In this document: positions 7,615 through 63,556 of the stretch, in pieces
Layout: every line of letters starts with the position of its first letter
Numbering within the stretch: position 1 is the stretch's first letter
Source of the DNA: Polyangiaceae bacterium
GTDB taxonomy: Bacteria; Myxococcota_A; Polyangia; Polyangiales; Polyangiaceae
Length of the DNA stretch: 64,000 nt
Reading direction: 5' to 3'
Assembly (NCBI GenBank): GCA_046351325.1
Contig: JAXLYR010000002.1
Span: 496,334 to 560,333, forward strand
Position numbers and translations under genes: made by a program
The notes under the pieces: model-generated
Told to the model about the DNA's origin: nothing
Database searches by the model: none
Seen by the model: the letters and a program-made list of their open reading frames with translations, nothing else

Positions 7615-8733
7615 ATGGATTGTCCAAGGTTGAAAATGGGCAAACCCATCACTGGCGAGCACAGCGAAACCCTGGATGCTGGGGTCGTCCGTGCGTCTGG
7701 CGAGAGCTCGGGCGGCGGGCCTATGTCCCCGCGAGACCTCATCGCGCTCCAGGCGGGTTGTGTCGTCGATGGGCGGTATCGGCTCATTCGGTTTCTCGCC
7801 GAGGGCGGGATGGGGCAGGTCTGGGTCGCCGAGCATACGAGCCTCGAGCGTCTCGTGGCGCTCAAGGTCGTCGCAGTCCCATCCCCCGTCGTGCGTGCGC
7901 GTGTCCTGCGAGAGGCCAGGCTGCTCGCGGCGCTGCATCACCCCGCTGTCGTCACCGTGTACGACTGCGGTGATCTCGACCGGCAATATCGGGCCTTCGA
8001 CGGCGGCGGGCAGCCGCTCCGTGGCGCGTACATCGCGATGGAGCTCGCCTCCGAGGAGACCCTCGAGCAGCACCTCGCCGCGCGGGGCCCGCTCCCGGCA
8101 AAAGACGCAGTCCAGCTGTTGATCCCTGTGTTGGACGGGCTCGCGGTCGCGCATCGACAGGGCATCATCCACCGCGATCTGAAGCCTTCGAACGTCGTGG
8201 CGAGGCGCGCATCGACCGGCGCGCTCGAGGACGCGAAGCTCCTCGACTTCGGAATAGCGCACGTGGAGCGCGCCGCCCCGAGCACGCTGACCGCCGTCGG
8301 CGGCGTCATCGGAACACCCCAATACATGGCCCCCGAGCAGATCGCGGGTGGCGTCATCGGGCCACACACCGACGTGTGGGGCTTCGCGCTGACGCTCCTC
8401 GAGCTCGTCACGGGTAAGCCGGTTTGGGACGCGCCCGAGCCGAGCTCGGTCATGGCGAGGATCCTCGGCGTGCCCCCCACGCGCCCCGACCCGAGCCGCG
8501 TCGACGCGAGCCTCTGGGCGATCCTCGAGCGCGCTATTGCCAAGTCGCGCGAGGAGCGGATCGGCTCGGTCGTCGAGCTCCGTGAGCGGCTCGTGCGCTG
8601 GTCAGCGGCGAGCCCGAGCGTCGTGAACACGCAACCGTCTCCCCGCGCTTCGGCGCTCGACGCGCTGGATACGACCGACGACGCGCCGCCGTCGCTCGAC
8701 GAGCTCATTCGCAAACGATTCCAAGACAACTGA
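7615..8733 (+). CDS. Ser/Thr protein kinase, Hanks-type
   Basis: Gly-loop AEGGMGQVW, VAIK-like VALKVV, HRDLKPSNV, DFG and APE (YMAPEQ) motifs are all intact. An alternative start is the ATG at 7636. The gene ends 10 bp before the PYP gene. Confidence 0.85.
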   Translation: MDCPRLKMGKPITGEHSETLDAGVVRASGESSGGGPMSPRDLIALQAGCVVDGRYRLIRFLAEGGMGQVWVAEHTSLERLVALKVVAVPSPVVRARVLREARLLAALHHPAVVTVYDCGDLDRQYRAFDGGGQPLRGAYIAMELASEETLEQHLAARGPLPAKDAVQLLIPVLDGLAVAHRQGIIHRDLKPSNVVARRASTGALEDAKLLDFGIAHVERAAPSTLTAVGGVIGTPQYMAPEQIAGGVIGPHTDVWGFALTLLELVTGKPVWDAPEPSSVMARILGVPPTRPDPSRVDASLWAILERAIAKSREERIGSVVELRERLVRWSAASPSVVNTQPSPRASALDALDTTDDAPPSLDELIRKRFQDN

Positions 8734-51553: not shown

Positions 51554-52147
51554 ATGACGCGCGCGAGCGTCGTCCTCGTTGCGGTGCTCTCGTTCGGAGT
51601 CGGCTCGGGCGCCACGCTCGCGGTGCACTTCGCACGAGCGGCTCGTCACAGCGCGGACGCGCGCGACGCCCGAGCGGACGAGGACGGTGACGATGACGAC
51701 GACGGCGCGCGGCACAAATCGCACGCGAAGCACGAGAGCTCCTCGAAGGCGACGAGCCACGCGAGCGCTCCGCCAGCGGCTGCGTCCAACGTGACGCCGT
51801 TGCCAGTGGCCGTCCCGATCGGGCTGCGACCCGTCACCGAGATCGGCAATCGCAGGCTGTCGTCGCTGATGGCGGACGACCTGCAGAAGCGCCTCTTCGG
51901 CTCGGGGTTCAAGGTCGTCAAGCGACTGAACCTCTCGACCGCCGTGAGCTGGGAGATCGTGGACGTGAAGGATCCGGGGGTCCGCGGCGTCGTCCGTTAT
52001 TGGCGAGTGGCCCCCGAGGGCATCACCGCCGAGGGGCACGGTACCTATGACACCGTTGTAGCTCGCGACGGCCGCTCCTTGCTGATCGTGCAGACCGCGG
52101 CCGGGATGGATAGGACCAAGACGCTCGCGGAGAAGCTCACGCAGTGA
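51554..52147 (+). CDS. Hypothetical secreted protein
   Basis: A signal peptide is followed by an acidic/His-rich stretch and then a ~100-aa domain. Its stop overlaps the next gene's start. Confidence 0.5.
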   Translation: MTRASVVLVAVLSFGVGSGATLAVHFARAARHSADARDARADEDGDDDDDGARHKSHAKHESSSKATSHASAPPAAASNVTPLPVAVPIGLRPVTEIGNRRLSSLMADDLQKRLFGSGFKVVKRLNLSTAVSWEIVDVKDPGVRGVVRYWRVAPEGITAEGHGTYDTVVARDGRSLLIVQTAAGMDRTKTLAEKLTQ

Positions 52148-53823
52148 GCGCGCGGCGTGGGCTCGCGGGCGCGGTCGCAGCGTCAGCGCTCACGCTGGTC
52201 GCGCAGGCGGGCGCCGCCCCCGTCTCGGTCATCGAGCCCGGCCAAGAAGACGCGCTCGCGGACATGTTGGGTCGCGGTGCGGAGCTGCCTGCGGGCTGCG
52301 CGTGGGCCGGTGCCGACATCGAAGCGAACAGGGTTGTAAGTCGATACGGCTGCGCGGGGCGGGCGGTCGCGGTCGAGCTCTGCCACCCGATCGAGGGCGC
52401 GTGTGTTCCGCGCGCGAAGGCTACGACGTCGGTCTTTGCGCTCGCGCCGTTCGAGGACTCTCGGCCCCCGAGCGAGCTCGTCGAGGCGCTCTCGAAGCGC
52501 GTCGAGGCGAAGCGAGGCACCTTTCGCTGGAGTCAGGCAGAGACGCCGCCGGGCTCGTCCGAGGCTCAGCGCAGCGCGCGCCCGATGCAGGGCGTCCTCT
52601 TCGCGATCTTCGGTGCGGCGATGGCGGCGATGGTCGGTGGGCTCGGCGTGACCTGGCTCGCGCGCCGGCCGCGCGTCGAGAACGCGATCGCCGACGCGAT
52701 CGCGAAGAGCCGCCTCGGTCCGGGAGCAGTGAAGACGCTGCGGCTCGCGACAGGTGCGCTCCTCTCCGTAGGGTTGGCGTTCGCGCTCTTCAGCGTCTCT
52801 CGCGCCGCGGCCGCGCTGCTCGCGGATTGGCTCCTCCAGCAGCCCTTCGCGCGGGTGAGCGTCAGGCTCGCGATCGCGTCGGGCCTCACGGCCATGAGCC
52901 TCGCGCTCCTCGGGCGCCTCGCGACCCCGAAGTGGCTCGTGGGTGGGGTCGTCGCGCTCCTCGCGATAGGGGGTTATCGGGCGAGCCTCCTGTCCGACGA
53001 TCTCCATCACTTCGGCGCGCTCTCGACGCCCGACCCGTCGAGCGAAGGTCGCGACCCGAGTCGGAGCGTGCTGCGCGCCCGGCCCATGTACGAGGTGAAC
53101 CGCTCGGGTTTTCGCGGGCCCGAGTGGAGCCTAGAGAAGGCCGCCGGCGTCTTTCGTGTGGTGCTGATCGGTGACAGCTTCGTCGCCGGCGACGGGCTCC
53201 CCGATTGGGAGTCGACGCTCGGCGTGCGGGTCGAGCGGACGCTCGCCGAGCGTCATGAAGACAAGCGCGTCGAGGTCCTGAACCTCGGCCTTCCGGGCGA
53301 CAATATTGTAAGCCATGTAAACCTCTATCGAGAGGCCGCCACACAGCTCGACGCCGACGCGATCGTCGTCTGTCTGACGCTCCTCAACGACCTCAGCGCG
53401 TGGGACGGACAGACCGAGCGGCGCGACGCGAGGCGACTCAGCGTCTTCAGCGTCGTGCGCTTTTTGGTGGGGGACGCGGCGGTGCCGATTTACAGCCATG
53501 TCACTCAGCCGAAGCGCGTCACCCAAAAGGAGGTCGCGCTCTTCCAAAGAGAAATGGCGCGGCTCGGTCAGCTCCACCGTGAGCTCGCCGCCGATCGGGC
53601 GCTCGTCGTCTTCACGTATGGGGCGCCGCCCGTCGAGCTCGACCCGTTCATCACCCCCGAGGGCGCCACGCGAGCGCCCGTCGAGACGCCCAAAGCCGAC
53701 TTCTTCATCCCCAATGACGGGCACCCGACGGCCCTCGGCAACGAGCATTTCGGGCGCGCGATCGCCGACGCCCTCGACGCCGACGAGCGAGCCCGCACCC
53801 GCATGTCCGCGAGCCGCCCGTGA
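52144..53823 (+). CDS. Membrane-anchored SGNH/GDSL-family hydrolase
   Basis: About 4-5 TM helices are followed by the SGNH block I VVLIGDSFVAGDG. Near the C-terminus is DGHP (catalytic His context). Confidence 0.7.
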   Translation: MSARRGLAGAVAASALTLVAQAGAAPVSVIEPGQEDALADMLGRGAELPAGCAWAGADIEANRVVSRYGCAGRAVAVELCHPIEGACVPRAKATTSVFALAPFEDSRPPSELVEALSKRVEAKRGTFRWSQAETPPGSSEAQRSARPMQGVLFAIFGAAMAAMVGGLGVTWLARRPRVENAIADAIAKSRLGPGAVKTLRLATGALLSVGLAFALFSVSRAAAALLADWLLQQPFARVSVRLAIASGLTAMSLALLGRLATPKWLVGGVVALLAIGGYRASLLSDDLHHFGALSTPDPSSEGRDPSRSVLRARPMYEVNRSGFRGPEWSLEKAAGVFRVVLIGDSFVAGDGLPDWESTLGVRVERTLAERHEDKRVEVLNLGLPGDNIVSHVNLYREAATQLDADAIVVCLTLLNDLSAWDGQTERRDARRLSVFSVVRFLVGDAAVPIYSHVTQPKRVTQKEVALFQREMARLGQLHRELAADRALVVFTYGAPPVELDPFITPEGATRAPVETPKADFFIPNDGHPTALGNEHFGRAIADALDADERARTRMSASRP

Positions 53824-55667
53824 GCGCGCGCTACGTCCTCGGGATCTCGGCCTATTACCATGACAGCGCCGCGGCCCTCCTCGACCAGGGAGAGGTCGTC
53901 GCGGCCGCACAAGAGGAGCGCTTCACGCGCAAGCGCCATGACGCCGCGTTCCCGGCGCAGGCTGTCGACTATTGTCTACGCGAGGCCGGCATAACGGCGG
54001 CCGACCTCGCTTATGTGGCCTTCTACGACAAGCCGCTGAGGAAGTTCGATCGGCTGCTCGAGACCTATTTCGCGTATGCGCCGCGCGGGCTCGGCTCGTT
54101 CCTGCGAGCGATGCCGGCGTGGCTGCGCGAGAAGCTCCATATGGGGCGCAACGTGCGCCGCGGGCTCGGCCCCGAGTATCGCGCCGACGTGGTCTTTCCC
54201 TCGCATCATGAGTCGCACGCGGCCTCGGCGTTTTACGCGTCTCCGTTCGAGCGCGCCGCGATCGTGACCTGCGACGGCGTCGGCGAGTGGGCGACGACCA
54301 CCATCGGCCTCGGAGAGGGGGGAAGACTCCGGCTCGATCGGTGCGTCTCCTTCCCCCATAGTCTGGGTCTGCTCTATTCGGCGTTTACCTACTTTACGGG
54401 ATTCAAGGTCAACTCCGGTGAGTACAAGCTCATGGGGCTCGCGCCGTTCGGTGAGCCCCGTTACACAGAGGTCATTCGGCGCGAGCTCGTAGATATAAAA
54501 GACGACGGCTCGTTTCGGCTGAATATGCGGTATTTCGACTATCCAGTAGGGCTCAGGATGACGGGCGCCGAGTTCGCGCGGCTCTTCGGCGGGCCGCCGC
54601 GAGACCCCGAGTCGACCATCACGCAGCGCGAGATGGATATGGCCGCTTCGATTCAGGTAGTCCTCGAGGACATCCTCCTTCGAATGGCGGCGTTCGCGAG
54701 GCGCGAGACAGGCGCAAAGGCCCTGTGCCTCGCGGGTGGGGTCGCTTTGAACTGCGTCGCAAACGGTCGCCTTCTGCGGGAGGGCCCGTTCGACGAGATA
54801 TGGATTCAGCCCGCCGCGGGGGACGCGGGCGGCGCGCTCGGGGCGGCGCTCTTCACGTGGCATCAGCTCCTCGAGCGACCGCGGACCGTGCGCGCGCGCG
54901 ACGGGCAGAAGGGGTCGCTCCTCGGGCCGGCGTTCGACATGCCTGCAATAGAAGCGGCGATCGCCGCGCGCGGCGCGCGGCATCGCGTGTTCGATGACGA
55001 GGCCGCGCTCCTCGACGAGGTCGCGCGCCACCGGGAGGGCGGCGCGGTCGGGGGTTGGTTTCACGGTCGTATGGAATTCGGGCCGCGGGCGCTCGGCGCG
55101 CGCAGCATCCTCGGCGACCCGCGCGACCCCACGATGCAGTCGCGGATGAACGTGAAGATCAAGCTGCGCGAGTCCTTCCGGCCCTTCGCGCCGATGGTGC
55201 TGCGCGAGCGCGCGAGCGAGATCTTCGAACTGTCCGAGGGCGTCGAGAGCCCGTACATGCTGCTCGTCGCGAACGTTCGAGAGCGCTACCGCCGCGACGT
55301 CGAGGCGAGCGACGCCGCGCGTGCGGACCCGGACCTCCGCCGTCGGGTGCAGCTCGTGCGGAGCGATTTTCCAGCGATCACGCACGTCGACGGCTCGGCG
55401 CGCCTGCAGACGGTCGACCCCGAGCGGCACGGGCGGACCTATCGCCTCTTGCGCGCGTTCGAGGCGCTGACGGGCTGTCCGCTCCTCGTGAACACGAGCT
55501 TCAACGTCAGGGGCGAGCCCATCGTCCATTCACCCGCCGAGGCTCTTCAGTGCTTCTTGCAGACCGACATGGATGCCGTCGTCCTCGAGGACGCGCTGCT
55601 CCTCAAGTCGGAGCAGCCGAGCTCCATCGTGCGGGCGCTCTCGAGCTCGCCGTTCCCCTTGGATTGA
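53820..55667 (+). CDS. O-carbamoyltransferase (NodU/CmcH/SxtI family)
   Basis: N-terminal YVLGISAYYHDSAAALL and HESHAASAFY motifs. The C-terminal carbamoyl-phosphate domain ends …LLVNTSFNVRGEPIVHSP. Confidence 0.9.
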   Translation: MSARYVLGISAYYHDSAAALLDQGEVVAAAQEERFTRKRHDAAFPAQAVDYCLREAGITAADLAYVAFYDKPLRKFDRLLETYFAYAPRGLGSFLRAMPAWLREKLHMGRNVRRGLGPEYRADVVFPSHHESHAASAFYASPFERAAIVTCDGVGEWATTTIGLGEGGRLRLDRCVSFPHSLGLLYSAFTYFTGFKVNSGEYKLMGLAPFGEPRYTEVIRRELVDIKDDGSFRLNMRYFDYPVGLRMTGAEFARLFGGPPRDPESTITQREMDMAASIQVVLEDILLRMAAFARRETGAKALCLAGGVALNCVANGRLLREGPFDEIWIQPAAGDAGGALGAALFTWHQLLERPRTVRARDGQKGSLLGPAFDMPAIEAAIAARGARHRVFDDEAALLDEVARHREGGAVGGWFHGRMEFGPRALGARSILGDPRDPTMQSRMNVKIKLRESFRPFAPMVLRERASEIFELSEGVESPYMLLVANVRERYRRDVEASDAARADPDLRRRVQLVRSDFPAITHVDGSARLQTVDPERHGRTYRLLRAFEALTGCPLLVNTSFNVRGEPIVHSPAEALQCFLQTDMDAVVLEDALLLKSEQPSSIVRALSSSPFPLD

Positions 55668-55698
55668 GCGCTGCGTCGCTTGGTATGGTGAGGTGGAG

Positions 55699-56136
55699 AT
55701 GGGCTCGGTGAAGGCTTTCGTCGCGGAGCACTACGCGCCGCTCGAGCGCGTCGCGACCGAGTCGGAGCTCCGCCTCTTCGGGTGGATCGCGCTCGGCGGC
55801 TTCGCGCTGCTCGCGGTCACGACGGCGCTCACGCGCGACGGCCTCGTGTTGCCTGCGGTGCTCGCGGCAGTCGGCGTCGTGTTGTTCGTGGGCGCTCGCT
55901 CGCCCATCGCGCGGCCGCTCTACAAGGCGTGGATGGGCCTCGGGCTCACGCTCGGGCTCTTCGTCGGACCCGTGGTGCTCACGGTGATCTACGTGCTCTT
56001 CGTGGCGCCGGTGGGGCTCGTGTTCCGGCTCATGGGTCGAGACGCGATGAAGCGCGCGCTCGAACCCGAGGCCGCGAGCTATTGGGAGCCGCACCCGCCA
56101 CCCGACGCGCCCGAGCGCTATTGGAGGCCGTTTTGA
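55699..56136 (+). CDS. SxtJ-like small membrane protein (carbamoyltransferase-associated)
   Basis: About 145 aa with 3 predicted TM helices. It lies immediately after the carbamoyltransferase, as sxtJ does next to sxtI. AGGTGGAG precedes the ATG. Confidence 0.5.
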   Translation: MGSVKAFVAEHYAPLERVATESELRLFGWIALGGFALLAVTTALTRDGLVLPAVLAAVGVVLFVGARSPIARPLYKAWMGLGLTLGLFVGPVVLTVIYVLFVAPVGLVFRLMGRDAMKRALEPEAASYWEPHPPPDAPERYWRPF

Positions 56137-56333
56137 GCAGCGAACCGGACAAGCCGTCGCGCTTCGAGGAGGCGAAGCCGGGCAACACGTCGCTCCCGGC
56201 CGAGCTCGGGCGCTTCCTCATGCAGAACAAGAAGTGGTGGCTCGCGCCGCTGCTCATCGCGCTCGCGCTGATGGCCGTCGTGTTGGTCCTGTCGGCCTCG
56301 CCCGCGGCGCCGTTTATTTATACGTTGTTTTAG
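56133..56333 (+). CDS. SxtK-like / DUF5989-type small membrane protein
   Basis: A TTG start overlaps the preceding stop (TTTTGAGC). …FLMQNKKWWLAPLLIALALMAVVLVLSASPAAPFIYTLF matches the KKWWL…APFIYTLF signature of the family. Confidence 0.5.
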   Translation: MSSEPDKPSRFEEAKPGNTSLPAELGRFLMQNKKWWLAPLLIALALMAVVLVLSASPAAPFIYTLF

Positions 56334-59174
56334 CTACGCGAGCGACGGGACCGCGTCGTTCTTCGCGAGCTCGACGCTCGCGCCGGGGACGGTCGTGGCC
56401 CAGGCACGCGCCGCGTCGAGCACGCGCGCCGAGGTCACCCTGTCGAGCAGCGAGACGTCGCCGAGGCCGATCGCGAGCTTCACGCACGCGCGAGTTGCCT
56501 CGAACGGCCGAGGCCAAGCGCGAGCACGTGCGACGCCCGCGCGATCGAGCGCGCCGAGCAACGCGAGGGCGCGACCGCGCGCCCAGCCGAGCGACTGCGA
56601 GACGCTGCCGTCGCGTGTGGCGCGCAGCGTGACGACGAGCCAGCTCGCGTGGCGGCGGTGCAAGGGTGGGGGAGTGAAGAGGCGCTCGACGTCGCCCGTG
56701 GACGCGAGCTCCCAAGCCTCGAAGAGCTCCTCGGTGAGGGTCGCGACGCCGCACGCAGGGAGCGCAGCGGACATCGAGCGCGTGGGCGCGGTCGGAGTGA
56801 GCACGCCCGTGAGCTCCGCGGCGACCGCGCGTTCGAGCGCGACGGGCTCACGAAAATCCCAGCCCGCCCAATGGGCGAAGAAGCCCTCGAGCCGCGGGTT
56901 CGAGCCGGGCGTCGCGGCGACCATCACGAGCCACGCGAGGCTCGGGAGCGTGCCGAACGCGGCGCTGTCGAGCCCTCGCGCGCGGGCCCAGCGCTTGACG
57001 AGGCGCGCGAGCTCACGGAGGTGAGGTTCGCGCTCGAAGAGGGCGGCGAGCGCCTCGGCGTCGCTCACGGCGCTGAGCGCGAGCGCGGCAGGCTCTGCGA
57101 GCTCGAGGCGGCGCGCGACCGCTTCGGAGACTGCGAGCGGCGCGCAGTCGACGAGCGCGAGATCCACGTCGAGCCCGCTCGCGAGGGAGAGCTCGAGGCC
57201 GGGGACGCGCGCGCCGACGATGTGGCGCGGGGGCTCGCGGAGCGCGAGCCCGCTCCTCTCGAGCGCGGCGGAGACGGACTCTGCGACGCGGTGCGGATCG
57301 AGGTCGCGGCCTGTGGCGACGAGATCGAGATCGCTGTCCGCGAGCGCGCAGTCGAGCGCCTGCGAGCCCGTCACGAACACGCCTGCGTCGGGAAGGCCCG
57401 CGCGGATCACCTCCGCGACGCGGGTCGCGCTGACCGAGGCGCGCAGCGTGGACGCCGAGGGTCGACAAAGCCCGGCCCGACAAAGTCCGGGTCGCTCGTC
57501 GAGCCACGTGAGGCGAGCGCGAGGCCCGAGCTCGAGCCTCGCCCGAGACTCCATCGGACCGCCCGCGCGCGATGACAAAAATGTAAGCTCGCGCACCGCG
57601 AGCGGCTGCGACGTGAAGGCCCTGGCGACGGGCGCGACGGCGGAGAGCTCGCCGCGGCCGAGCGTGAGGTGCGGGGAGCTCTCGGCGCGCGCGCGGCACG
57701 CGGGCAAAGGCGCGCGCAGCAAGGCCGTGAGCTCGCGCCAGCGATCCGCAGGGAGCGCGGGCAAATGCACGGTGGGCGCGCCCTTGTCGTGTTCGAAAAT
57801 CGCGGGCTCGCCGAGGGTCGCGTCGAACGGCGCGACACGCCGAGCCTCGTCGAGGAGCAGGCGCGCTGCGGCCTCGAAGCTCGACTCGGGGACGAAGCCG
57901 AAGACGACGTTGACGTGAGGTGGCCAGCGGCTCGCCTGCGGATCGTGGAGCGCGCGCGTTCGCTCGATCGCGGCGCAGGCCTCGGTCGGTGGGAGCCACG
58001 CGAGCGCGGTGCTCGCCGTGGACGGGAGCTCGAGCGTCGCGCGCGCCTCGAGCGGCGCGAGATCGGCGACGACCGCCCCGTGATCGGACGCGAAGAGGGG
58101 CGGAGCACCGGGCTCGATCGGCTCGGTGGCGGCGAGCTCGGCGCGCTTCACGGTGAGCTCGCGCGAGGTGAAGAGCACGCGATCGAGGCGGCGAGCCTCG
58201 CCCGAGAGCGACGAGAGCGCGGCGAGCGTGTTCGCCGTCGGATCGAACGTCGCGCCGTCGCCACGCGGATCACCGAACACGCGCTCGGTCGAGGTCCACG
58301 CGTCGGCGAGCCCGAGGCTCGCGGCGAGCTCGGGATCGCCGTCGTTGAAATCGCCCGCGACGATGACGTCGCTCGAGAGCGACGCGATCGCGGAGGCGAG
58401 GAGTTCGCGCTCGCGCCGCCGATGCTCGCGCGCCTGCTCGCGGTGGTCGCTGCTCAGGTGGAGCGCGACGAAGGCGACGCGGCGCGGAGGCGCGGCGCCG
58501 CCCCATTCGATCACGGCGGCGACGAGCGCTTTGTGGCTCTTGCGCGCGCGCGGCCCATCGGCGCCGAGATCGCGGTAGCCGAGCTCGAGGATGGGCCACC
58601 GGCTGAGCAGCACGAGGCCACATTGTTCGACGTCGTCGCGCGAGGGACCCACGTGGTAACGCGAGCGCACCCAGCCCGCGCCGAGCAGCAGCTCGAGGAG
58701 CGGGAGCTCGACCTCTTGAAGCGCGATGAGATCCGCGTCGAGCCCTTCGAGGAGCTCGAGCTGATGGGGCCGGCGACGCTCGGTCGCGAGCCGATCGGCG
58801 TCGTAGCGATCCCACAGCGTGTTCCACGTGACGACGCGGAGCTCGCCGTTCGACGCGGGCGCCATCGCCGTAGGCTCCGGCGACGCGAGCACGACGCGAG
58901 GCTCGAAGAAGGTCTGGAGCTCGAGCTTCGCGCGAGCGCGGCCTGCTTCGGTGCGATCGAGGATGTCGAGGCCCGCGCGCCGATCCCACACGGTGACGCC
59001 ATCGGCTTCGAACGCGACGACGCGATGCCACGGGATGTCCCCGCCGGCGACGAAGTCGCTGAACGCGACGCGCTTCAGCGACGCGCCGTGCACGTCGAGC
59101 CCGATCGTGAACCGCGCGGCGTCGAGCGAGGCGTCCCACCGGATCCGGTTGTAAATCTCCTCACTGGTCCGCAT
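56334..59174 (-). CDS. Multidomain putative RNA end-processing/repair protein: MJ1316(DUF504)-like, EEP nuclease/phosphatase, 2H phosphoesterase-like, pol-beta nucleotidyltransferase
   Basis: N-terminus MRTSEEIYNRIRWD…IPWHRVVAFEADGVTVWDRR (MJ1316-like). EEP motifs VVTWNTLW, ALQEVE, AGDFND and FASDHGAVV. 2H-like HVNVVFGF and HLTLGRG. NTase GVFVTGSQALDCALADSDLDLV. The start was moved to 59174, giving a 14-nt overlap with the upstream gene. Confidence 0.8.
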   Translation of the reverse strand: MRTSEEIYNRIRWDASLDAARFTIGLDVHGASLKRVAFSDFVAGGDIPWHRVVAFEADGVTVWDRRAGLDILDRTEAGRARAKLELQTFFEPRVVLASPEPTAMAPASNGELRVVTWNTLWDRYDADRLATERRRPHQLELLEGLDADLIALQEVELPLLELLLGAGWVRSRYHVGPSRDDVEQCGLVLLSRWPILELGYRDLGADGPRARKSHKALVAAVIEWGGAAPPRRVAFVALHLSSDHREQAREHRRRERELLASAIASLSSDVIVAGDFNDGDPELAASLGLADAWTSTERVFGDPRGDGATFDPTANTLAALSSLSGEARRLDRVLFTSRELTVKRAELAATEPIEPGAPPLFASDHGAVVADLAPLEARATLELPSTASTALAWLPPTEACAAIERTRALHDPQASRWPPHVNVVFGFVPESSFEAAARLLLDEARRVAPFDATLGEPAIFEHDKGAPTVHLPALPADRWRELTALLRAPLPACRARAESSPHLTLGRGELSAVAPVARAFTSQPLAVRELTFLSSRAGGPMESRARLELGPRARLTWLDERPGLCRAGLCRPSASTLRASVSATRVAEVIRAGLPDAGVFVTGSQALDCALADSDLDLVATGRDLDPHRVAESVSAALERSGLALREPPRHIVGARVPGLELSLASGLDVDLALVDCAPLAVSEAVARRLELAEPAALALSAVSDAEALAALFEREPHLRELARLVKRWARARGLDSAAFGTLPSLAWLVMVAATPGSNPRLEGFFAHWAGWDFREPVALERAVAAELTGVLTPTAPTRSMSAALPACGVATLTEELFEAWELASTGDVERLFTPPPLHRRHASWLVVTLRATRDGSVSQSLGWARGRALALLGALDRAGVARARAWPRPFEATRACVKLAIGLGDVSLLDRVTSARVLDAARAWATTVPGASVELAKNDAVPSLA

Positions 59175-60939
59175 CGTCGTCGAGCCCCCCGGTGCTGTCG
59201 GTCGCCTCGGCGGCGCCGTCACGAGCCGCGGCCGCGCGATAGACGAGGCGGTCTGCGTCGCCTGGAAACGGCGGGCGACAGCGCGCGATCTGTTCGTCGA
59301 GGACGTCGACGGGGACCGCGTGTGCGCGGGTCGCGTTGCGCGCCCCGAGCAGCGCGCGCGGCGTGAGGAAGACGACCTGCCAGACCTGCGCGCCGAGGCG
59401 ATGCGCGACGCTCTCGGGGAGCTTGCGCTGCTGCGGGATCAGGCTGGTCGCGTCCCAGATCACGTCGCGCCCGCTCGCGAGCGCGCCGTGCAGTTTCTCG
59501 AGGGCCTCCCCGAGGACCGCGGCGTTCTCCGATTGATCGGCACGCGCACCGCGGCTCTCGCGGAGAGCGTCGAGCGCGATGACGACCGACGGGCGCTCTC
59601 GCGTGTCGCTGGGGTCGTGCGCCGCGAGCGAGCTCTTGCCGCTGCCCGAAGGGCCCACGAAGAGCGTGAGCCGCGGGCGGCGCGCGGAGCGCATGCGAAA
59701 CGTCGCTTGGATCGCCTCCGGCGCGCTCACGAGGGCGCCGCGCACCCAACCCGATCGGGCCTCGGCCCAGCACTGCTCGGCGATGCGCGCGTCGGCCATC
59801 GCGTGGATGCCAGCGAACTCCGCGCGAACCGCGCGGCGGAGCTCACCGATCGGCTCGCGCGCGAGCAGGCCGTGCTCCTCGGCGAGGAGCTCCGACCACG
59901 CGATCGCGTCGACGGCCTGCGCGTCGCTCGCGTGCGCGGCGCGAGCGACCGCGTGCGCGACGCCGAGGTCTGCGCCGAGCGACATCCAGCGAAGGCCGCG
60001 CGGCGTGGGGTTCTCGGGTTCGGGCGACGCGATCTTCGGCGCGAGCGCTGCGACGTCCGCGATGCGTCGCGCGAGCCGCGGACCGAGCGCGACGGCGAGC
60101 TCCATCATGAGCTCGCCGCGTGGCAGGTCGGGGAGGAGCGCGGCGAACGCGGCCTCGACGCGCGCGTCACCGAACCGGCCGAGGGCGTCGAGCCCTGCGT
60201 GAACTGCGGAGAGTCGCGTGTCGTCCGCTTCACGAGGAGGTCGCGCGAGCGTCGGGGGCAAGAGGTCGAGGAGCGTGCGCGCGGGCACGAGCTCACCGCC
60301 GCGCGCAGCCCAGAGCGCGGCGCGCGGACCGCGTTCATTTTCGATGAAGGGCCCGCGCATCCAGTGCTCGTCGGTCTGGACGTGGTCGCGTCGAACCCAC
60401 TTCGCGACGCTCGCGGTGAAGTCGTCGCGCGAGAAGCCGCTCGCGAGCCGAACGACGTAGCCCTCTTGTCGCGCCGGATCGATCTTCAGGCGGCGGAGCG
60501 CGTTCTCCTGGAATACACCTCGAAAGAGGACGGGTGGCGTCGGCAACCCGAGGTCCGCGGCGAAGCGCACGGTCTCGTCCCACGAGAGCGCGTCGTCACC
60601 GTTCCAGACGCTGAAGGCATAGAAGAAGCTCTCGAGATCCGCGTACGCGATGGAGTGCCGCGCGTGGACGTTCTCACCCGAGATGCGGAAGCCCGCGGGG
60701 ATGCGATCGCGGATGCGCCCGTGCAGGGCCTTCACCCAGGCGCGCGACGGGTGGTGCGCGGAGTCCGGCGAGCGCGCGTGGAGCCCGTCGGAGTAGAGCG
60801 TGGTGTTCTCTCCGTCGAGCTTCTCCGTGACGACGACCTCGCGGCCTTTGAAGCTCGCGAGATCGACAAGCCGGACATCGTCCGCGGTCGCGCCCGGCGA
60901 CCATGGCAGGTGCGGGGTTCGAGGGTAGCGGACTCGCAT
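59161..60939 (-). CDS. RNA ligase (ATP-dependent, KxDG nucleotidyltransferase) fused to P-loop polynucleotide-kinase-like domain
   Basis: N-terminus YPRTPHLPWS…VVTEKLDGENTTLY (motif I). EGYVVR (motif IV) and AKWVRRDH (motif V). The C-terminus has Walker A FVGPSGSGKSS and the AAA_33/Pnk-like VIWDATSL. Confidence 0.8.
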   Translation of the reverse strand: MRVRYPRTPHLPWSPGATADDVRLVDLASFKGREVVVTEKLDGENTTLYSDGLHARSPDSAHHPSRAWVKALHGRIRDRIPAGFRISGENVHARHSIAYADLESFFYAFSVWNGDDALSWDETVRFAADLGLPTPPVLFRGVFQENALRRLKIDPARQEGYVVRLASGFSRDDFTASVAKWVRRDHVQTDEHWMRGPFIENERGPRAALWAARGGELVPARTLLDLLPPTLARPPREADDTRLSAVHAGLDALGRFGDARVEAAFAALLPDLPRGELMMELAVALGPRLARRIADVAALAPKIASPEPENPTPRGLRWMSLGADLGVAHAVARAAHASDAQAVDAIAWSELLAEEHGLLAREPIGELRRAVRAEFAGIHAMADARIAEQCWAEARSGWVRGALVSAPEAIQATFRMRSARRPRLTLFVGPSGSGKSSLAAHDPSDTRERPSVVIALDALRESRGARADQSENAAVLGEALEKLHGALASGRDVIWDATSLIPQQRKLPESVAHRLGAQVWQVVFLTPRALLGARNATRAHAVPVDVLDEQIARCRPPFPGDADRLVYRAAAARDGAAEATDSTGGLDDDADQ

Positions 60940-60995
60940 GGCGGCACTCTCGACGGCTCGATGACGAGCAGGCTGACGACCTCGGAAACGAAGAC

Positions 60996-61814
60996 TCAGG
61001 TTTGGATTCGCCGCTCGACCCTGCCGCCGCGCAGCACGGCGATCTCACCCTCGGCCATGGGCTCCCAGGGCTCGTCGCTGAGCGGCACGCTCGCCGCGAG
61101 CGCGACCTCTTGCTCGTCCGCGTGCTCGACGGAGACCCCGACGAGCGGGACGCCGTCCGCGGCCGCGCTGCACGTGCGACAGAGCAAATGCAGGCCTGGC
61201 GGGCGCATGGTGCCGTCGGACTGCGTTCGCTTGTGCGCGTGGGCGATGATCAACTCGCCGTCGCTGTAGAGGAAGTTCGCAGGCCCCAGCGTCCGAAGCT
61301 CGCGCGCGAACGGCGCGAGGCGCTCGAGGCGTGCGTCGAGCGCAGGCAGCTCGTCGCGACTGCAAGCTTCGTAGAGCGGCGCGAGCTGCTCGAGCAGCGC
61401 GCAGAACGCGTGCTCCGAGTCCGTCTCACCAACGGGTCGAAAGCGGCGCGCGGGGAAGCGCGCGTCCTGTTCGATGCCGGGCACCATCCCGTTGTGCGCG
61501 AACACGTGCATGCGACCGCCGAGCTCGCGCGCGAAGGGCTGCGTGTTGCAGAGCCTCGGCTTGCCCTGCGTGGCCTTGCGCACGTGCGCGATCGTCAGCG
61601 TCGCGCGCGGCTGGTACTCCTCGAAGAACTTCACCCAGCGGCTGTGCGCCGCGGCCTCGGGCGCGCGATGGATGAGCACGTCGCGATCGTCCGAGAGGCT
61701 CAGCCCCCAGCCGTCCGCGTGGGGGCCCGTCTCTCCGCCGTGCCGCGCGAGCTCGTCGAGCGAGAGCCGTACCGTCGTCGGATGCCGCGCCGCGATCGCG
61801 AGGAGCTCGCACAT
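60996..61814 (-). CDS. Class II (Ntn) glutamine amidotransferase-like protein
   Basis: Begins MCELLAIA, the catalytic Cys2 of class-II GATases (YafJ-like). Confidence 0.75.
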   Translation of the reverse strand: MCELLAIAARHPTTVRLSLDELARHGGETGPHADGWGLSLSDDRDVLIHRAPEAAAHSRWVKFFEEYQPRATLTIAHVRKATQGKPRLCNTQPFARELGGRMHVFAHNGMVPGIEQDARFPARRFRPVGETDSEHAFCALLEQLAPLYEACSRDELPALDARLERLAPFARELRTLGPANFLYSDGELIIAHAHKRTQSDGTMRPPGLHLLCRTCSAAADGVPLVGVSVEHADEQEVALAASVPLSDEPWEPMAEGEIAVLRGGRVERRIQT

Positions 61815-61834: not shown

Positions 61835-63556
61835 TCAGCGACCGTCGGAGCGCGCGGTCGCTGCCGTCTTCTCCGGCTGTTTGCGGTCCGCGGACGGCGC
61901 GGGCAACGAGCTGCCAGCGGGCAAGAACGTGGCCGCCGGCATGAGCTCCGAAAGGACGGGGAACTCCTTCGGCCATCCGTCCGTGAGGAACTGCTCCACC
62001 GCCGCGCGCTCTTCGCTCGTCCCTTGGAATTTTGCGCCTAGAGATATGTAAGTGCTTCCCGAAGCTTTCGCCGCTGTAAGCGCTGCGTCGCGGAGCTCGC
62101 CGATCCGTTTCACGAGCTCGACTCGCTTCGGCGAGGTGGACGCCGCGAGGGCGCGCAGCTCTTCGGCGAGCGCGATGCGCGCGAGCGCGACCGTCCCGCT
62201 CGCGCGGAGGACCCACTTCGGCGGAGGCTCCGGCTGCAGCTGCATGATCGCACCGAGGTCGTGCTCGAGCGCGTCGATCTCCGCGACGCGCGCCTTGTAC
62301 GAAGGGACCAGCGCGTCGACGAGGTACGCGTCTTCTTTGTTCGTGAGCGCGGCCTGCGCGGCCCCCTTCAGCGCCGGTGGTCGCGGCAGCTTCGCGTGCG
62401 GGCGCTTTGCGTCGTCCCACATCGCGACCTGGAAAGTCGCCTCGCCGATCGCGGTGAGGGCGCGCCCGAGCGCGCGCACCTCGAGCTCGCTCGCCATCTT
62501 CGCGACCAGTGGCATCCCGTTCGCGACCTCGCTCATGAGCTTGCGAGCCTCCGCGAGCTTGCCGCGGGCCGCGAGGTCGTGCGCCCCGAGGACGCGCGCC
62601 TCGAGCCTCGCGTCGAGGGGAGCGGCGCTCGAGAGGTTCACGGCCTGCGTGAGCCACTTGTTTGCGCTCTTCGCTCCGATGGCGTGCGACGGATCGTTCG
62701 CGTAGGCCGCCAGCCCGTAGGCGACGGTCGCCGCCTCACCCGTATGCGACGCGAAGAGCTTCAAGAAGAGGTCGCCGTCCGCGCTCGCGAGGTCGAACTC
62801 GGCGAGGGCGAGGCGCATCACGACAGCGTCGAAGAGAGCCGTGGGTGCCCCGTCCTCCTTCGGAAATTTCGACGCGAACTCTTCGTACGCGGCGGCTGCG
62901 CTTTCGTAGCGCGTGAGCGATCGGTTCATGTGCCCGCTACGCAAGACGAGCTCCCGCGTGATCGGGGACTCGAACTTCGGATCGGCGGCGATCGCCAGCT
63001 TCACGGTCTCGAGCGCCGTGTCGATCAGGCGCGCGGCCTGGAATGCTTTTACCGCGTTATAGTAAAGCTCGGGGCGCCTCGGGTTCTTGCTCTCCTCGGC
63101 GCTCTCCGCGAGGTCGCGATACATCGTCGCGGCCCGCTCGTAGTCCTTGCGGACGCTGACCTCGTCTCCCCCGCGGTCGGCCCGTTCGATGATGACCTGG
63201 GCGCGCAGGCGTCGGCCGTCGAGCTCCGCGCGAGCGAGCGTGGGGCAGAGCGCTGGCGGGTTCGCGGTGTCGCTGCAGTGGAGCGCACGCAGTCGACTCA
63301 CCGTCGAGATCATCTCCTCCAGCATGGCGTCGTCAACGGACGCGAGCGCCGAGAAGTCCTTCACGTAGTCGAGGGCTGCCGCACGCGAAGCCTCGCTCGT
63401 GTCCTCGAGCGCGCGCTCGGCGTCGGCCTCGAGCTTGGCTCTCGCCTCCGCGTCCGCTTGCTTCGACGGCGCAGCACTCACGTGTGACGCTGCAGTTGAC
63501 CCGACGGCCACGAGCGCGATCGTCAGCGAGAGGGCCCTCTGGACAAGGCTGCGCAT
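61835..63556 (-). CDS. Secreted alpha-helical (TPR-like) hypothetical protein
   Basis: Signal peptide MRSLVQRALSLTIALVAVGSTAASHVSA. Helical repeat composition throughout. Confidence 0.55.
   Translation of the reverse strand: MRSLVQRALSLTIALVAVGSTAASHVSAAPSKQADAEARAKLEADAERALEDTSEASRAAALDYVKDFSALASVDDAMLEEMISTVSRLRALHCSDTANPPALCPTLARAELDGRRLRAQVIIERADRGGDEVSVRKDYERAATMYRDLAESAEESKNPRRPELYYNAVKAFQAARLIDTALETVKLAIAADPKFESPITRELVLRSGHMNRSLTRYESAAAAYEEFASKFPKEDGAPTALFDAVVMRLALAEFDLASADGDLFLKLFASHTGEAATVAYGLAAYANDPSHAIGAKSANKWLTQAVNLSSAAPLDARLEARVLGAHDLAARGKLAEARKLMSEVANGMPLVAKMASELEVRALGRALTAIGEATFQVAMWDDAKRPHAKLPRPPALKGAAQAALTNKEDAYLVDALVPSYKARVAEIDALEHDLGAIMQLQPEPPPKWVLRASGTVALARIALAEELRALAASTSPKRVELVKRIGELRDAALTAAKASGSTYISLGAKFQGTSEERAAVEQFLTDGWPKEFPVLSELMPAATFLPAGSSLPAPSADRKQPEKTAATARSDGR

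Follow-up and report, generated by a model that had tools for sequence, protein, structure and literature searches.

A coupled bacterial gene pair predicted to heal and seal broken RNA

Systems that repair broken RNA in prokaryotes and phages follow a published 'syntax' that combines a kinase, a 2H phosphoesterase for cyclic ends, a linear phosphatase, a nucleotidyltransferase that restores nucleotides and a ligase for 5'-P and 3'-OH ends (PMC7824862). In the fungal/plant enzyme Trl1, the ligase domain Trl1-LIG (Rnl6) has an Rnl1-like N-subdomain, a KxNG motif I and, in its C-domain, an RxxR site for an obligatory 2'-PO4, which is later removed by Tpt1 (PMC6379707). Phage T4 uses Pnkp, whose kinase is fused to a HAD phosphatase, together with the ligases Rnl1 and Rnl2. 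The bacterial Pnkp-Hen1 system (Clostridium thermocellum and, on our reading, the pair SCO5972/SCO5973 of Streptomyces coelicolor) carries kinase, calcineurin-type phosphatase and Rnl4-type ligase on one Pnkp chain, and Hen1 2'-O-methylates the repaired junction. Burroughs & Aravind 2016 reportedly catalogued the modular prokaryotic RNA-repair systems, including operons of RlaP nucleotidyltransferases with ligases, and are said to have named the RlaP enzymes and also MJ1316. Here we describe a locus at positions 56,334–61,814 of a 64,000-nucleotide stretch of DNA from a Polyangiaceae bacterium (assembly GCA_046351325.1, contig JAXLYR010000002.1, positions 496,334–560,333 of the forward strand; this whole stretch is called the window). 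It holds two genes, A and B, whose products combine an RNA ligase with a kinase, and an MJ1316 domain with EEP, 2H and poly(A) polymerase (PAP)-like modules (Table 1). The locus is probably a self-contained two-gene operon that heals and seals breaks in RNA that bear 2',3'-cyclic-phosphate (or 3'-phosphate) and 5'-OH ends. This overall interpretation had been put forward in a sequence-only reading of the window, and it is supported by the identities of the domains, their intact active sites and the coupling of the two genes.

The earlier description of A and B as an overlapping minus-strand pair is confirmed by the open reading frames and by direct reading: the TGA of A (59163-59161) lies just beyond the ATG of B (59174-59172), and the 14-nt overlap couples their translation. 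Because the N-terminal sequence MRTSEEIY of B is nearly invariant across homologues, we take ATG 59174 as the true start; a GTG at 59222, also a possible start of this frame, was dropped in its favor. Such tight coupling suggests that the two proteins are made together and may act as a complex. The pair is also kept in related genomes. Of the best 80 loci with B relatives, 77 have A as the next gene upstream of B, on the same strand, and the junction between the stop of A and the start of B measures -14 to +13 nt in 76 of these 77, with a 1-nt overlap in 45.

At a threshold of E ≤ 1e-3, homologues number more than 1100 for B and more than 1350 for A, and when each species was represented by one genome, at least 542 species genomes proved to hold a B relative. 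Most homologues belong to Actinomycetota (Streptomyces, Nonomuraea, Kitasatospora, Streptosporangium, Catenulispora and Kutzneria) and some to Polyangia (Sorangium and Chondromyces). The window cassette, ~46-54% identical to its nearest relatives, is one divergent myxobacterial copy of a family that is common in Actinomycetota and present in Polyangia. The sequence-only reading did not recognize the architecture as a described one. It proves to be widespread, and both proteins already bear RNA-repair or ligase names at NCBI: the entries for the window proteins, from a Polyangiaceae metagenome-assembled genome (MAG), are called 'RNA ligase family protein' (A) and 'RNA repair domain-containing protein' (B), and relatives of B are usually called 'poly(A) polymerase'. 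The literature covered, outside which Burroughs & Aravind 2016 lies, yielded no paper on this cassette.

All domain assignments previously made for A and B are upheld by Pfam, profile and fold evidence. RNA_ligase (PF09414), AAA_33, MJ1316, Exo_endo_phos and 2_5_RNA_ligase2 all score above the Pfam gathering score, and the motifs KLDGEN, EGYVVR, KWVRRDH, GPSGSGKSS and WDATSL sit where they had been placed and are invariant in 120 homologues. In the best 120 homologues of each protein, all full length, the five enzymatic domains keep their catalytic residues, and the MJ1316 domain its signature, in 113-120 of 120, and most of these residues are invariant. The AlphaFold model of A has a predicted local distance difference test (pLDDT) score of 87.5 and a predicted template modelling (pTM) score of 0.89 and consists of three parts. 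For B (pLDDT 81.7, pTM 0.45) the individual domains are good and their mutual orientation is uncertain.

The first part of A is an RNA ligase core, and the check on its superfamily bears out the earlier assignment. The core belongs to the covalent lysine nucleotidyltransferase superfamily and is Rnl2-like: PF09414 matches residues 33-182 with 108.9 bits, a nucleotidyltransferase fold spans residues ~26-200 of the model, and the motifs follow in order, with motif I at Lys40 (KLDGEN, 40-45), motif III GEN (88-90), motif IIIa FYxFSVW, motif IV EGYVVR (159-164) and motif V KWVR (180-183) within KWVRRDH (180-186). Single-sequence and profile searches of the PDB returned no solved sequence relative of the core, and a solved relative was reached only by fold search; there, full-length T4 Rnl2 (2hvq) aligns with A over 173 residues only, corresponding to the core. 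Sequence relatives are found in phages. Two PHROG RNA-ligase families match with 232 and 194 bits, and the first ~205 residues of A are 45-54% identical to stand-alone ligases of ~200 residues from the jumbo phages XacN1, Caulobacter CcrSC and CcrBL9, Atu_ph07 and RsoM2USA; the three ligases of XacN1 have been assigned to the Rnl2 family by the Aravind group (PMC7824862). The N-terminal peptide YPRTPHLPWSPG..DD (residues 1-25, window 60865-60939) is almost invariant and recurs in the stand-alone phage ligases. It is modelled with very low confidence (pLDDT <50) and may fold only on a partner, RNA or ATP.

That A fuses a ligase to a kinase holds for both domains; the fusion is not direct, however, as a conserved helical domain of ~210 residues, absent from the earlier description, lies between them. 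This all-α domain is about twice the size of an Rnl2-type C-terminal domain. Its residues Asp324, His329 and Ser349 are invariant, and Trp348, Cys390 and Trp391 are at least 90% conserved. It has no match in Pfam, among PDB sequences or in phages, whose ligases are devoid of it. Because RNA-ligase families and clades are defined by the domains appended to the core (PMC6379707), the helical domain could define a new clade of RNA ligases.

The C-terminal part of A is predicted, from its sequence motifs and fold, to be a kinase of the T4 Pnk/CthPnkp clade. AAA_33 matches residues 424-557 with 76.6 bits, and the signature residues comprise the P-loop GPSGSGKS (429-436, extending to GPSGSGKSS at 437), Asp457 and Arg460, Arg466, WDAT (495-498, within WDATSL at 495-500), Arg505 and the RNxxR lid (Arg534-Asn535 and Arg538); the closest fold is that of Pnk. 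A zeta-toxin identity for this P-loop domain was considered and ruled out: Pfam gave no qualifying Zeta_toxin match, and a Pnk of the T4/CthPnkp type was closest in the fold search.

Protein B starts with an MJ1316 domain, a family that is predicted to recognize 2',3'-cyclic ends and is found fused to RNA-repair domains (PMC6514570). PF04457 covers residues 1-65 over the full length of the model with 57.6 bits (gathering score 26.3). The signature RWD, PWHR, EA, Trp63 and Arg65 is fully invariant except at Arg12 (116 of 120) and Ala57 (119 of 120). The next domain is a member of the EEP superfamily, matched by Exo_endo_phos at residues 115-365 (75.9 bits), with the N, E, D-x-N, D and D-H residues of the superfamily (Asn118, Glu154, His239, Asp275, Asn277, Asp331, Asp364 and His365) carried on a four-layer α/β sandwich. 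Because its best relative in both sequence and Foldseek searches is TDP2 (E = 9e-11; ANGEL2 and CCR4 are marginal, E >0.07), the substrate of this domain cannot be read from the structure. The following domain, probably a 2H phosphoesterase and matched by 2_5_RNA_ligase2 at residues 395-535 with 86.7 bits, resembles Bacillus subtilis YjcG and Thermus thermophilus LigT; a single-sequence PDB search with it gave chance matches only. Its motif 1 is His420-Val-Asn, an HxN variant, and its motif 2 is His502-Leu-Thr.

The C-terminal ~370 residues of B had been described as a pol-beta nucleotidyltransferase. The fold is as stated, and the module can be named more exactly. Its nucleotidyltransferase is sub-threshold in Pfam; a profile built from 38 homologues matched, over residues 590-901, human PAP gamma (E = 3e-39), bovine PAP alpha (3e-31), and Schizosaccharomyces pombe Pla1 and yeast Pap1 (~1e-28 to 1e-29). 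The palm (Gly603-Ser604, Asp615-x-Asp617 and Asp671), the central domain (Lys727, VKxWAxxRG) and a C-terminal RNA-binding-like domain are contiguous, and by this profile evidence the module is a full, three-domain homologue of the canonical eukaryotic PAPs, beyond a generic pol-beta fold.

Natural variants of B indicate which of these modules form the core. In a homology search (variants P0241-P0350), MJ1316 is the constant N-terminal module, and the catalytic modules vary: we found MJ1316-EEP (~365-430 residues, including in complete genomes), MJ1316-EEP-2H, MJ1316-EEP-PAP without 2H (present alone in locus L085), MJ1316-2H (~300 residues, stand-alone in locus L086) and MJ1316 joined to an AAA_33 kinase (P0349). 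Minimal cassettes, in which the ligase-kinase gene is followed by MJ1316-EEP only, occur as two intact cases in two phyla, one in a Polyangiaceae MAG (L082, 7755-8903), which keeps all EEP motifs and has no remnant of 2H or PAP, and one in Microtetraspora malaysiensis, whose genome is complete (L084, 5001-6131). Because these minimal cassettes keep the ligase-kinase and MJ1316-EEP alone, we infer that the core healer of 3' ends is the EEP domain and that the 2H and PAP modules would be accessories which widen the range of repairable ends.

Table 1 Features of the locus in window coordinates
Feature	Position	Strand	Residues	Assignment or basis
Gene A	59161..60939	minus	592	Open reading frame; Rnl2-type RNA ligase core, ~210-residue helical domain and 5'-OH polynucleotide kinase
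Gene B	56334..59174	minus	946	Open reading frame; MJ1316, EEP, 2H and poly(A)-polymerase-like module
A/B overlap	59161..59174	minus		14 nt; read directly from the sequence
Ligase nucleotidyltransferase core (Rnl2/Rnl5-like, ATP-dependent)	60325..60939	minus	A 1-205	Pfam, motifs, phage homology
All-α domain, 11 helices	59686..60324	minus	A 206-418	AlphaFold2 model, pLDDT mostly >90
Predicted P-loop 5'-OH polynucleotide kinase (T4/CthPnkp type)	59161..59685	minus	A 419-592 and stop	Pfam, motifs, fold
MJ1316 domain, predicted recognizer of RNA 2',3'-cyclic-phosphate ends	58950..59174	minus	B 1-75	PF04457
EEP-superfamily Mg-dependent phosphoesterase	58050..58847	minus	B 110-375	Exo_endo_phos, catalytic residues
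Probable 2H (LigT/YjcG-like) phosphoesterase	57495..58022	minus	B 385-560	2_5_RNA_ligase2
Predicted canonical poly(A)-polymerase-like module	56334..57458	minus	B 573-946 and stop	Profile of 38 homologues
Glutamine amidotransferase	60996-61814	same orientation as A		56 nt upstream of A; GATase_4, 195.8 bits (Pfam)

Domain identity and intact active sites suggest how the two proteins could work together. Breaks would be supplied by metal-independent RNases, ribotoxins or cleavage at stalled ribosomes, all of which leave cyclic-phosphate (or 3'-phosphate) and 5'-OH ends. The MJ1316 domain of B would bind the cyclic-phosphate 3' end and bring the catalytic modules of B to it. The 2H domain would then open the cyclic phosphate to a monoester and the EEP domain would remove the phosphate, leaving a 2',3'-OH end; alternatively, the EEP domain may perform both opening and removal, in the manner of ANGEL2. 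The kinase of A would phosphorylate the 5'-OH. If nucleotides had been lost, the PAP-like module of B could extend the healed 3'-OH. Finally, the Rnl2-type ligase of A, adenylylated on Lys40, would join the 3'-OH to the 5'-PO4. This proposed order of events matches the published rules for prokaryotic and phage RNA-repair systems (PMC7824862).

The promoter of the actinobacterial relatives offers a hint at when the cassette is used. Among 70 actinobacterial loci, 59, representing 14 genera, carry a footprint ~30-110 nt upstream of A (for example, L022, L002 and L044). It consists of an AT-rich 6-mer, 3 bp, T[TG]G[AC]NN (TGGAnn), 17-18 bp and TANNNT, with the consensus ggTtATtCG.TGGAtc - 17/18 nt - TAcAGTGaC and a spacer that is not conserved. 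The footprint has the geometry of the WblC-activated promoter of S. coelicolor, which reads GAAAWY - 3 bp - TKGMNN - 16-19 bp - TANNNT (PMC7157823). Under a stricter criterion, by which the 6-mer must match GAAAWY at four or more of its six positions, 35 of the 70 loci still qualify; of 1400 random windows 6 did so, and of 1400 shuffles none. In S. coelicolor, SCO5972 (Hen1) is induced 132.8-fold and has a WblC chromatin immunoprecipitation peak, and SCO5973 of the same operon is induced 83.3-fold (PMC7157823, Table S2), which makes a different RNA-repair operon a direct target of WblC; 'RNA repair' does not occur as a term in the main text of that paper. Neither 'ligase' nor 'exonuclease' appears in the table of the S. 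coelicolor WblC regulon, and this species is not established as a carrier of the cassette; the literature search found no paper linking WhiB7 or WblC to the cassette. Because a WblC/WhiB7-type promoter is conserved upstream of A, its sequence suggests that in actinomycetes the cassette may be induced by translation-targeting antibiotics via WblC/WhiB7. This is the only contextual clue to its role, and in these relatives it points to translation stress. Some copies are leaderless: 6-8 nt separate their -10 box from the ATG. A conserved hairpin (TGAC...GTCA) in the 5' leader after the -10 box was considered and rejected, as comparison with shuffles gave a mean z of +0.43 and just 2% fell below -1.5.

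We put forward, as a tentative and rather doubtful extension of these observations, that the cassette forms an arm for RNA repair in the intrinsic antibiotic-resistance response (WblC/WhiB7) of actinomycetes and has been laterally shared with myxobacteria. Antibiotic-stalled ribosomes might lead to tRNA or rRNA being cut to cyclic-phosphate ends, whereupon an MJ1316-guided EEP enzyme, as a bacterial counterpart of ANGEL2, and the PAP module might restore the 3' end and the new ligase-kinase clade might reseal the break, thereby contributing measurably to antibiotic tolerance.

Three other explanations of the locus were weighed. B could serve the disposal of RNA fragments, dephosphorylating and tailing those with cyclic-phosphate ends for decay by 3'-exonucleases, with A in a separate or minor role. 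Tails at 3' ends generally promote decay in bacteria, a complete canonical-type PAP is the largest and best-conserved module of B, and both the MJ1316-EEP-PAP protein that stands alone and the loci with B alone (counted below) fit such a function. A coupled ligase-kinase in 77 of the 80 loci, however, with stop and start overlapping or abutting, would make little sense for ends bound for decay, and the minimal cassettes retain the ligase-kinase and drop the PAP module; we consider disposal unlikely. A true Trl1-type pathway, in which the 2H domain would make a 3'-OH/2'-PO4 end, the ligase would require that 2'-PO4 and the junction phosphate would be removed later, is more improbable. The ligase core is Rnl2/Rnl5-like, with KxDG instead of KxNG and without an Rnl1-type N-subdomain; no Tpt1/KptA or other third gene is linked in the 80 loci; the minimal cassettes are devoid of 2H; and the EEP phosphoesterase could clear the monoester before ligation. 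Least probable, and in our view very remote, is the processing of DNA or RNA-DNA ends, with a TDP2-like EEP enzyme removing blocking 5' or 3' adducts, the kinase and ligase acting on DNA nicks and the nucleotidyltransferase filling in. The TDP2 match of the EEP domain in both searches speaks for it, and kinases of the CthPnkp and T4 types also phosphorylate DNA. Against this, three of the modules (MJ1316, 2H and the canonical-PAP-like one) are of the RNA-end kind, the ligase belongs to an RNA-ligase family and has phage RNA-ligase relatives, and in none of the 70 loci was a DNA-damage promoter motif (PafBC/RecA-NDp promoter or LexA SOS box) found upstream of A.

Several observations also weigh against healing and sealing by the pair. 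B has no A beside it in 3 of the 80 loci, nor in either Sorangium genome, and thus evidently does not need a neighboring A to function. Motif 1 of the 2H domain is HVN in 113 of 120 homologues and HVT in 7, in place of the canonical HxT/S. In the PAP-like module, the invariant Asp736 (window 56967-56969) aligns with a tyrosine of PAP gamma (RGLDSA compared with RGIYSN). In canonical PAPs, the tyrosine at this position helps to bind ATP. Because Asp736 replaces it, the bacterial module may have another nucleotide specificity and may not be specific for poly(A). No ribotoxin, defense or mobile-element context was found in the 80 related loci, among the window neighbors or by PADLOC. The window has no WblC-type promoter, and Myxococcota are not known to have WblC. 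Finally, the literature search found no biochemical or experimental work on any member of the family.

The surroundings of the cassette add little to its interpretation. The sequence-only reading suggested that a glutamine amidotransferase gene directly upstream of A might be co-transcribed. The gene is there; it is found in 0 of the 80 related loci and is absent from five further neighborhoods with an EEP-bearing B (Chondromyces, a Polyangiaceae MAG, Sorangium, Microtetraspora and Nonomuraea), which rules it out as a part of the system, and we regard it as a chance neighbor. Between the amidotransferase and A in the window, no σ70-like promoter or terminator is recognizable. A 573-residue Ala-rich protein (61835-63556, minus strand), with a signal-peptide-like N terminus and no Pfam match, is encoded 20 nt upstream of the amidotransferase and is its likelier operon partner. 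On the other side, a convergent plus-strand cluster (52144-56333) of carbamoyltransferase, GDSL, SxtJ and DUF5989 genes is, like the 573-residue protein, unrelated to the cassette; the stop of B abuts that of the DUF5989 gene (56333/56334), which leaves no space for a terminator on either strand.

Comparison of five reference loci with the 80 yielded no third conserved gene (Tpt1, Hen1, toxin or regulator). A partner non-coding RNA (tRNA-like or Y-RNA) was likewise discarded: the window has no tRNA, tRNAs are sporadic in 56 loci, and the sole Rfam match is below threshold and inside coding sequence. Nor is the cassette a known defense system, as PADLOC gave no match beyond one P-loop-only hit of 14 bits; the counter-conflict or anti-phage role that had been proposed finds no direct support there or in the gene context. 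Two relatives have an HNH endonuclease gene ~0.7-1.6 kb upstream of the cassette, Chondromyces crocatus (L081, 3000-3524) and M. malaysiensis (L084, 457-1596). The HNH gene is not conserved across the 80 loci, and its presence in two distant genomes may be coincidence; HNH domains are fused to some Rnl2-family ligases (PMC7824862). In Sorangium cellulosum So ce56, ~42-nt tandem repeats lie upstream of a stand-alone B at the usual position of the ligase-kinase gene (L020, ~7700-7990), and in one frame they read MNLWPxAVDSLPGE in 4-5 copies.

For the window itself the result is modest: one divergent copy of a common family, next to an unrelated amidotransferase. The wider leads are MJ1316-guided EEP end healing, a bacterial canonical-type PAP, the helical domain of the ligase and the WblC-type promoter. 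If the proposed pathway holds, the cassette would join RtcAB, Pnkp-Hen1 and the phage T4 enzymes as a fourth bacterial system of RNA repair that is open to experiment, with a different end-healing chemistry in which an MJ1316 end sensor guides an EEP phosphoesterase, and the WblC-type promoter of its actinobacterial relatives would tie RNA repair to intrinsic resistance against ribosome-targeting antibiotics in antibiotic-producing bacteria. A full canonical-type PAP module in bacteria would then also bear on the origin of the eukaryotic enzyme family.

How does the cassette compare with the systems described so far? The Trl1-like logic previously ascribed to it stands as an analogy. Like fungal/plant Trl1/AtRNL, it combines, by prediction, ligase, 5'-OH kinase and 2H activities, with ligase followed by kinase on one chain. 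In contrast to Trl1, its core is Rnl2/Rnl5-like with an invariant KLDGEN (KxDGxN), it has neither the N-subdomain nor a linked Tpt1, its cyclic phosphodiesterase is on a second protein, and it has an EEP phosphoesterase. The cassette falls outside the Trl1 family, and its logic is closer to that of T4 Pnkp/Rnl2 or Pnkp-Hen1. The kinase, fused to a phosphatase in T4, is here fused to the ligase; the 3' healer is EEP (with 2H) instead of a HAD phosphatase; an MJ1316 end sensor, a PAP-like nucleotidyltransferase and a 210-residue helical domain unmatched to the Rnl2 C-domain are added; and the genes are chromosomal, not phage-borne. Compared with Pnkp-Hen1, the cassette has no methyltransferase, its ligase is of the PF09414 family, its phosphoesterases are EEP and 2H, and it carries the PAP-like and MJ1316 modules in addition. 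Its EEP domain, unlike ANGEL2 (an EEP-family RNA 2',3'-cyclic phosphatase) and TDP2, sits between MJ1316 and 2H. The PAP-like module, only ~16-18% identical to the canonical eukaryotic enzymes (PAP alpha and gamma, Pap1 and Pla1), differs from them in being bacterial, fused to end-healing domains and free of any cleavage/polyadenylation-factor context. Taken as a whole, the cassette fits the published syntax of the modular prokaryotic RNA-repair systems, with its ligase, kinase, phosphoesterases, nucleotidyltransferase and end-recognition or scaffold domain and with its shuffling of modules. It departs from the usual ones in that a PAP-like enzyme replaces the RlaP or CCA-adding nucleotidyltransferase, and EEP replaces a linear phosphatase of the HAD, calcineurin or HD type.

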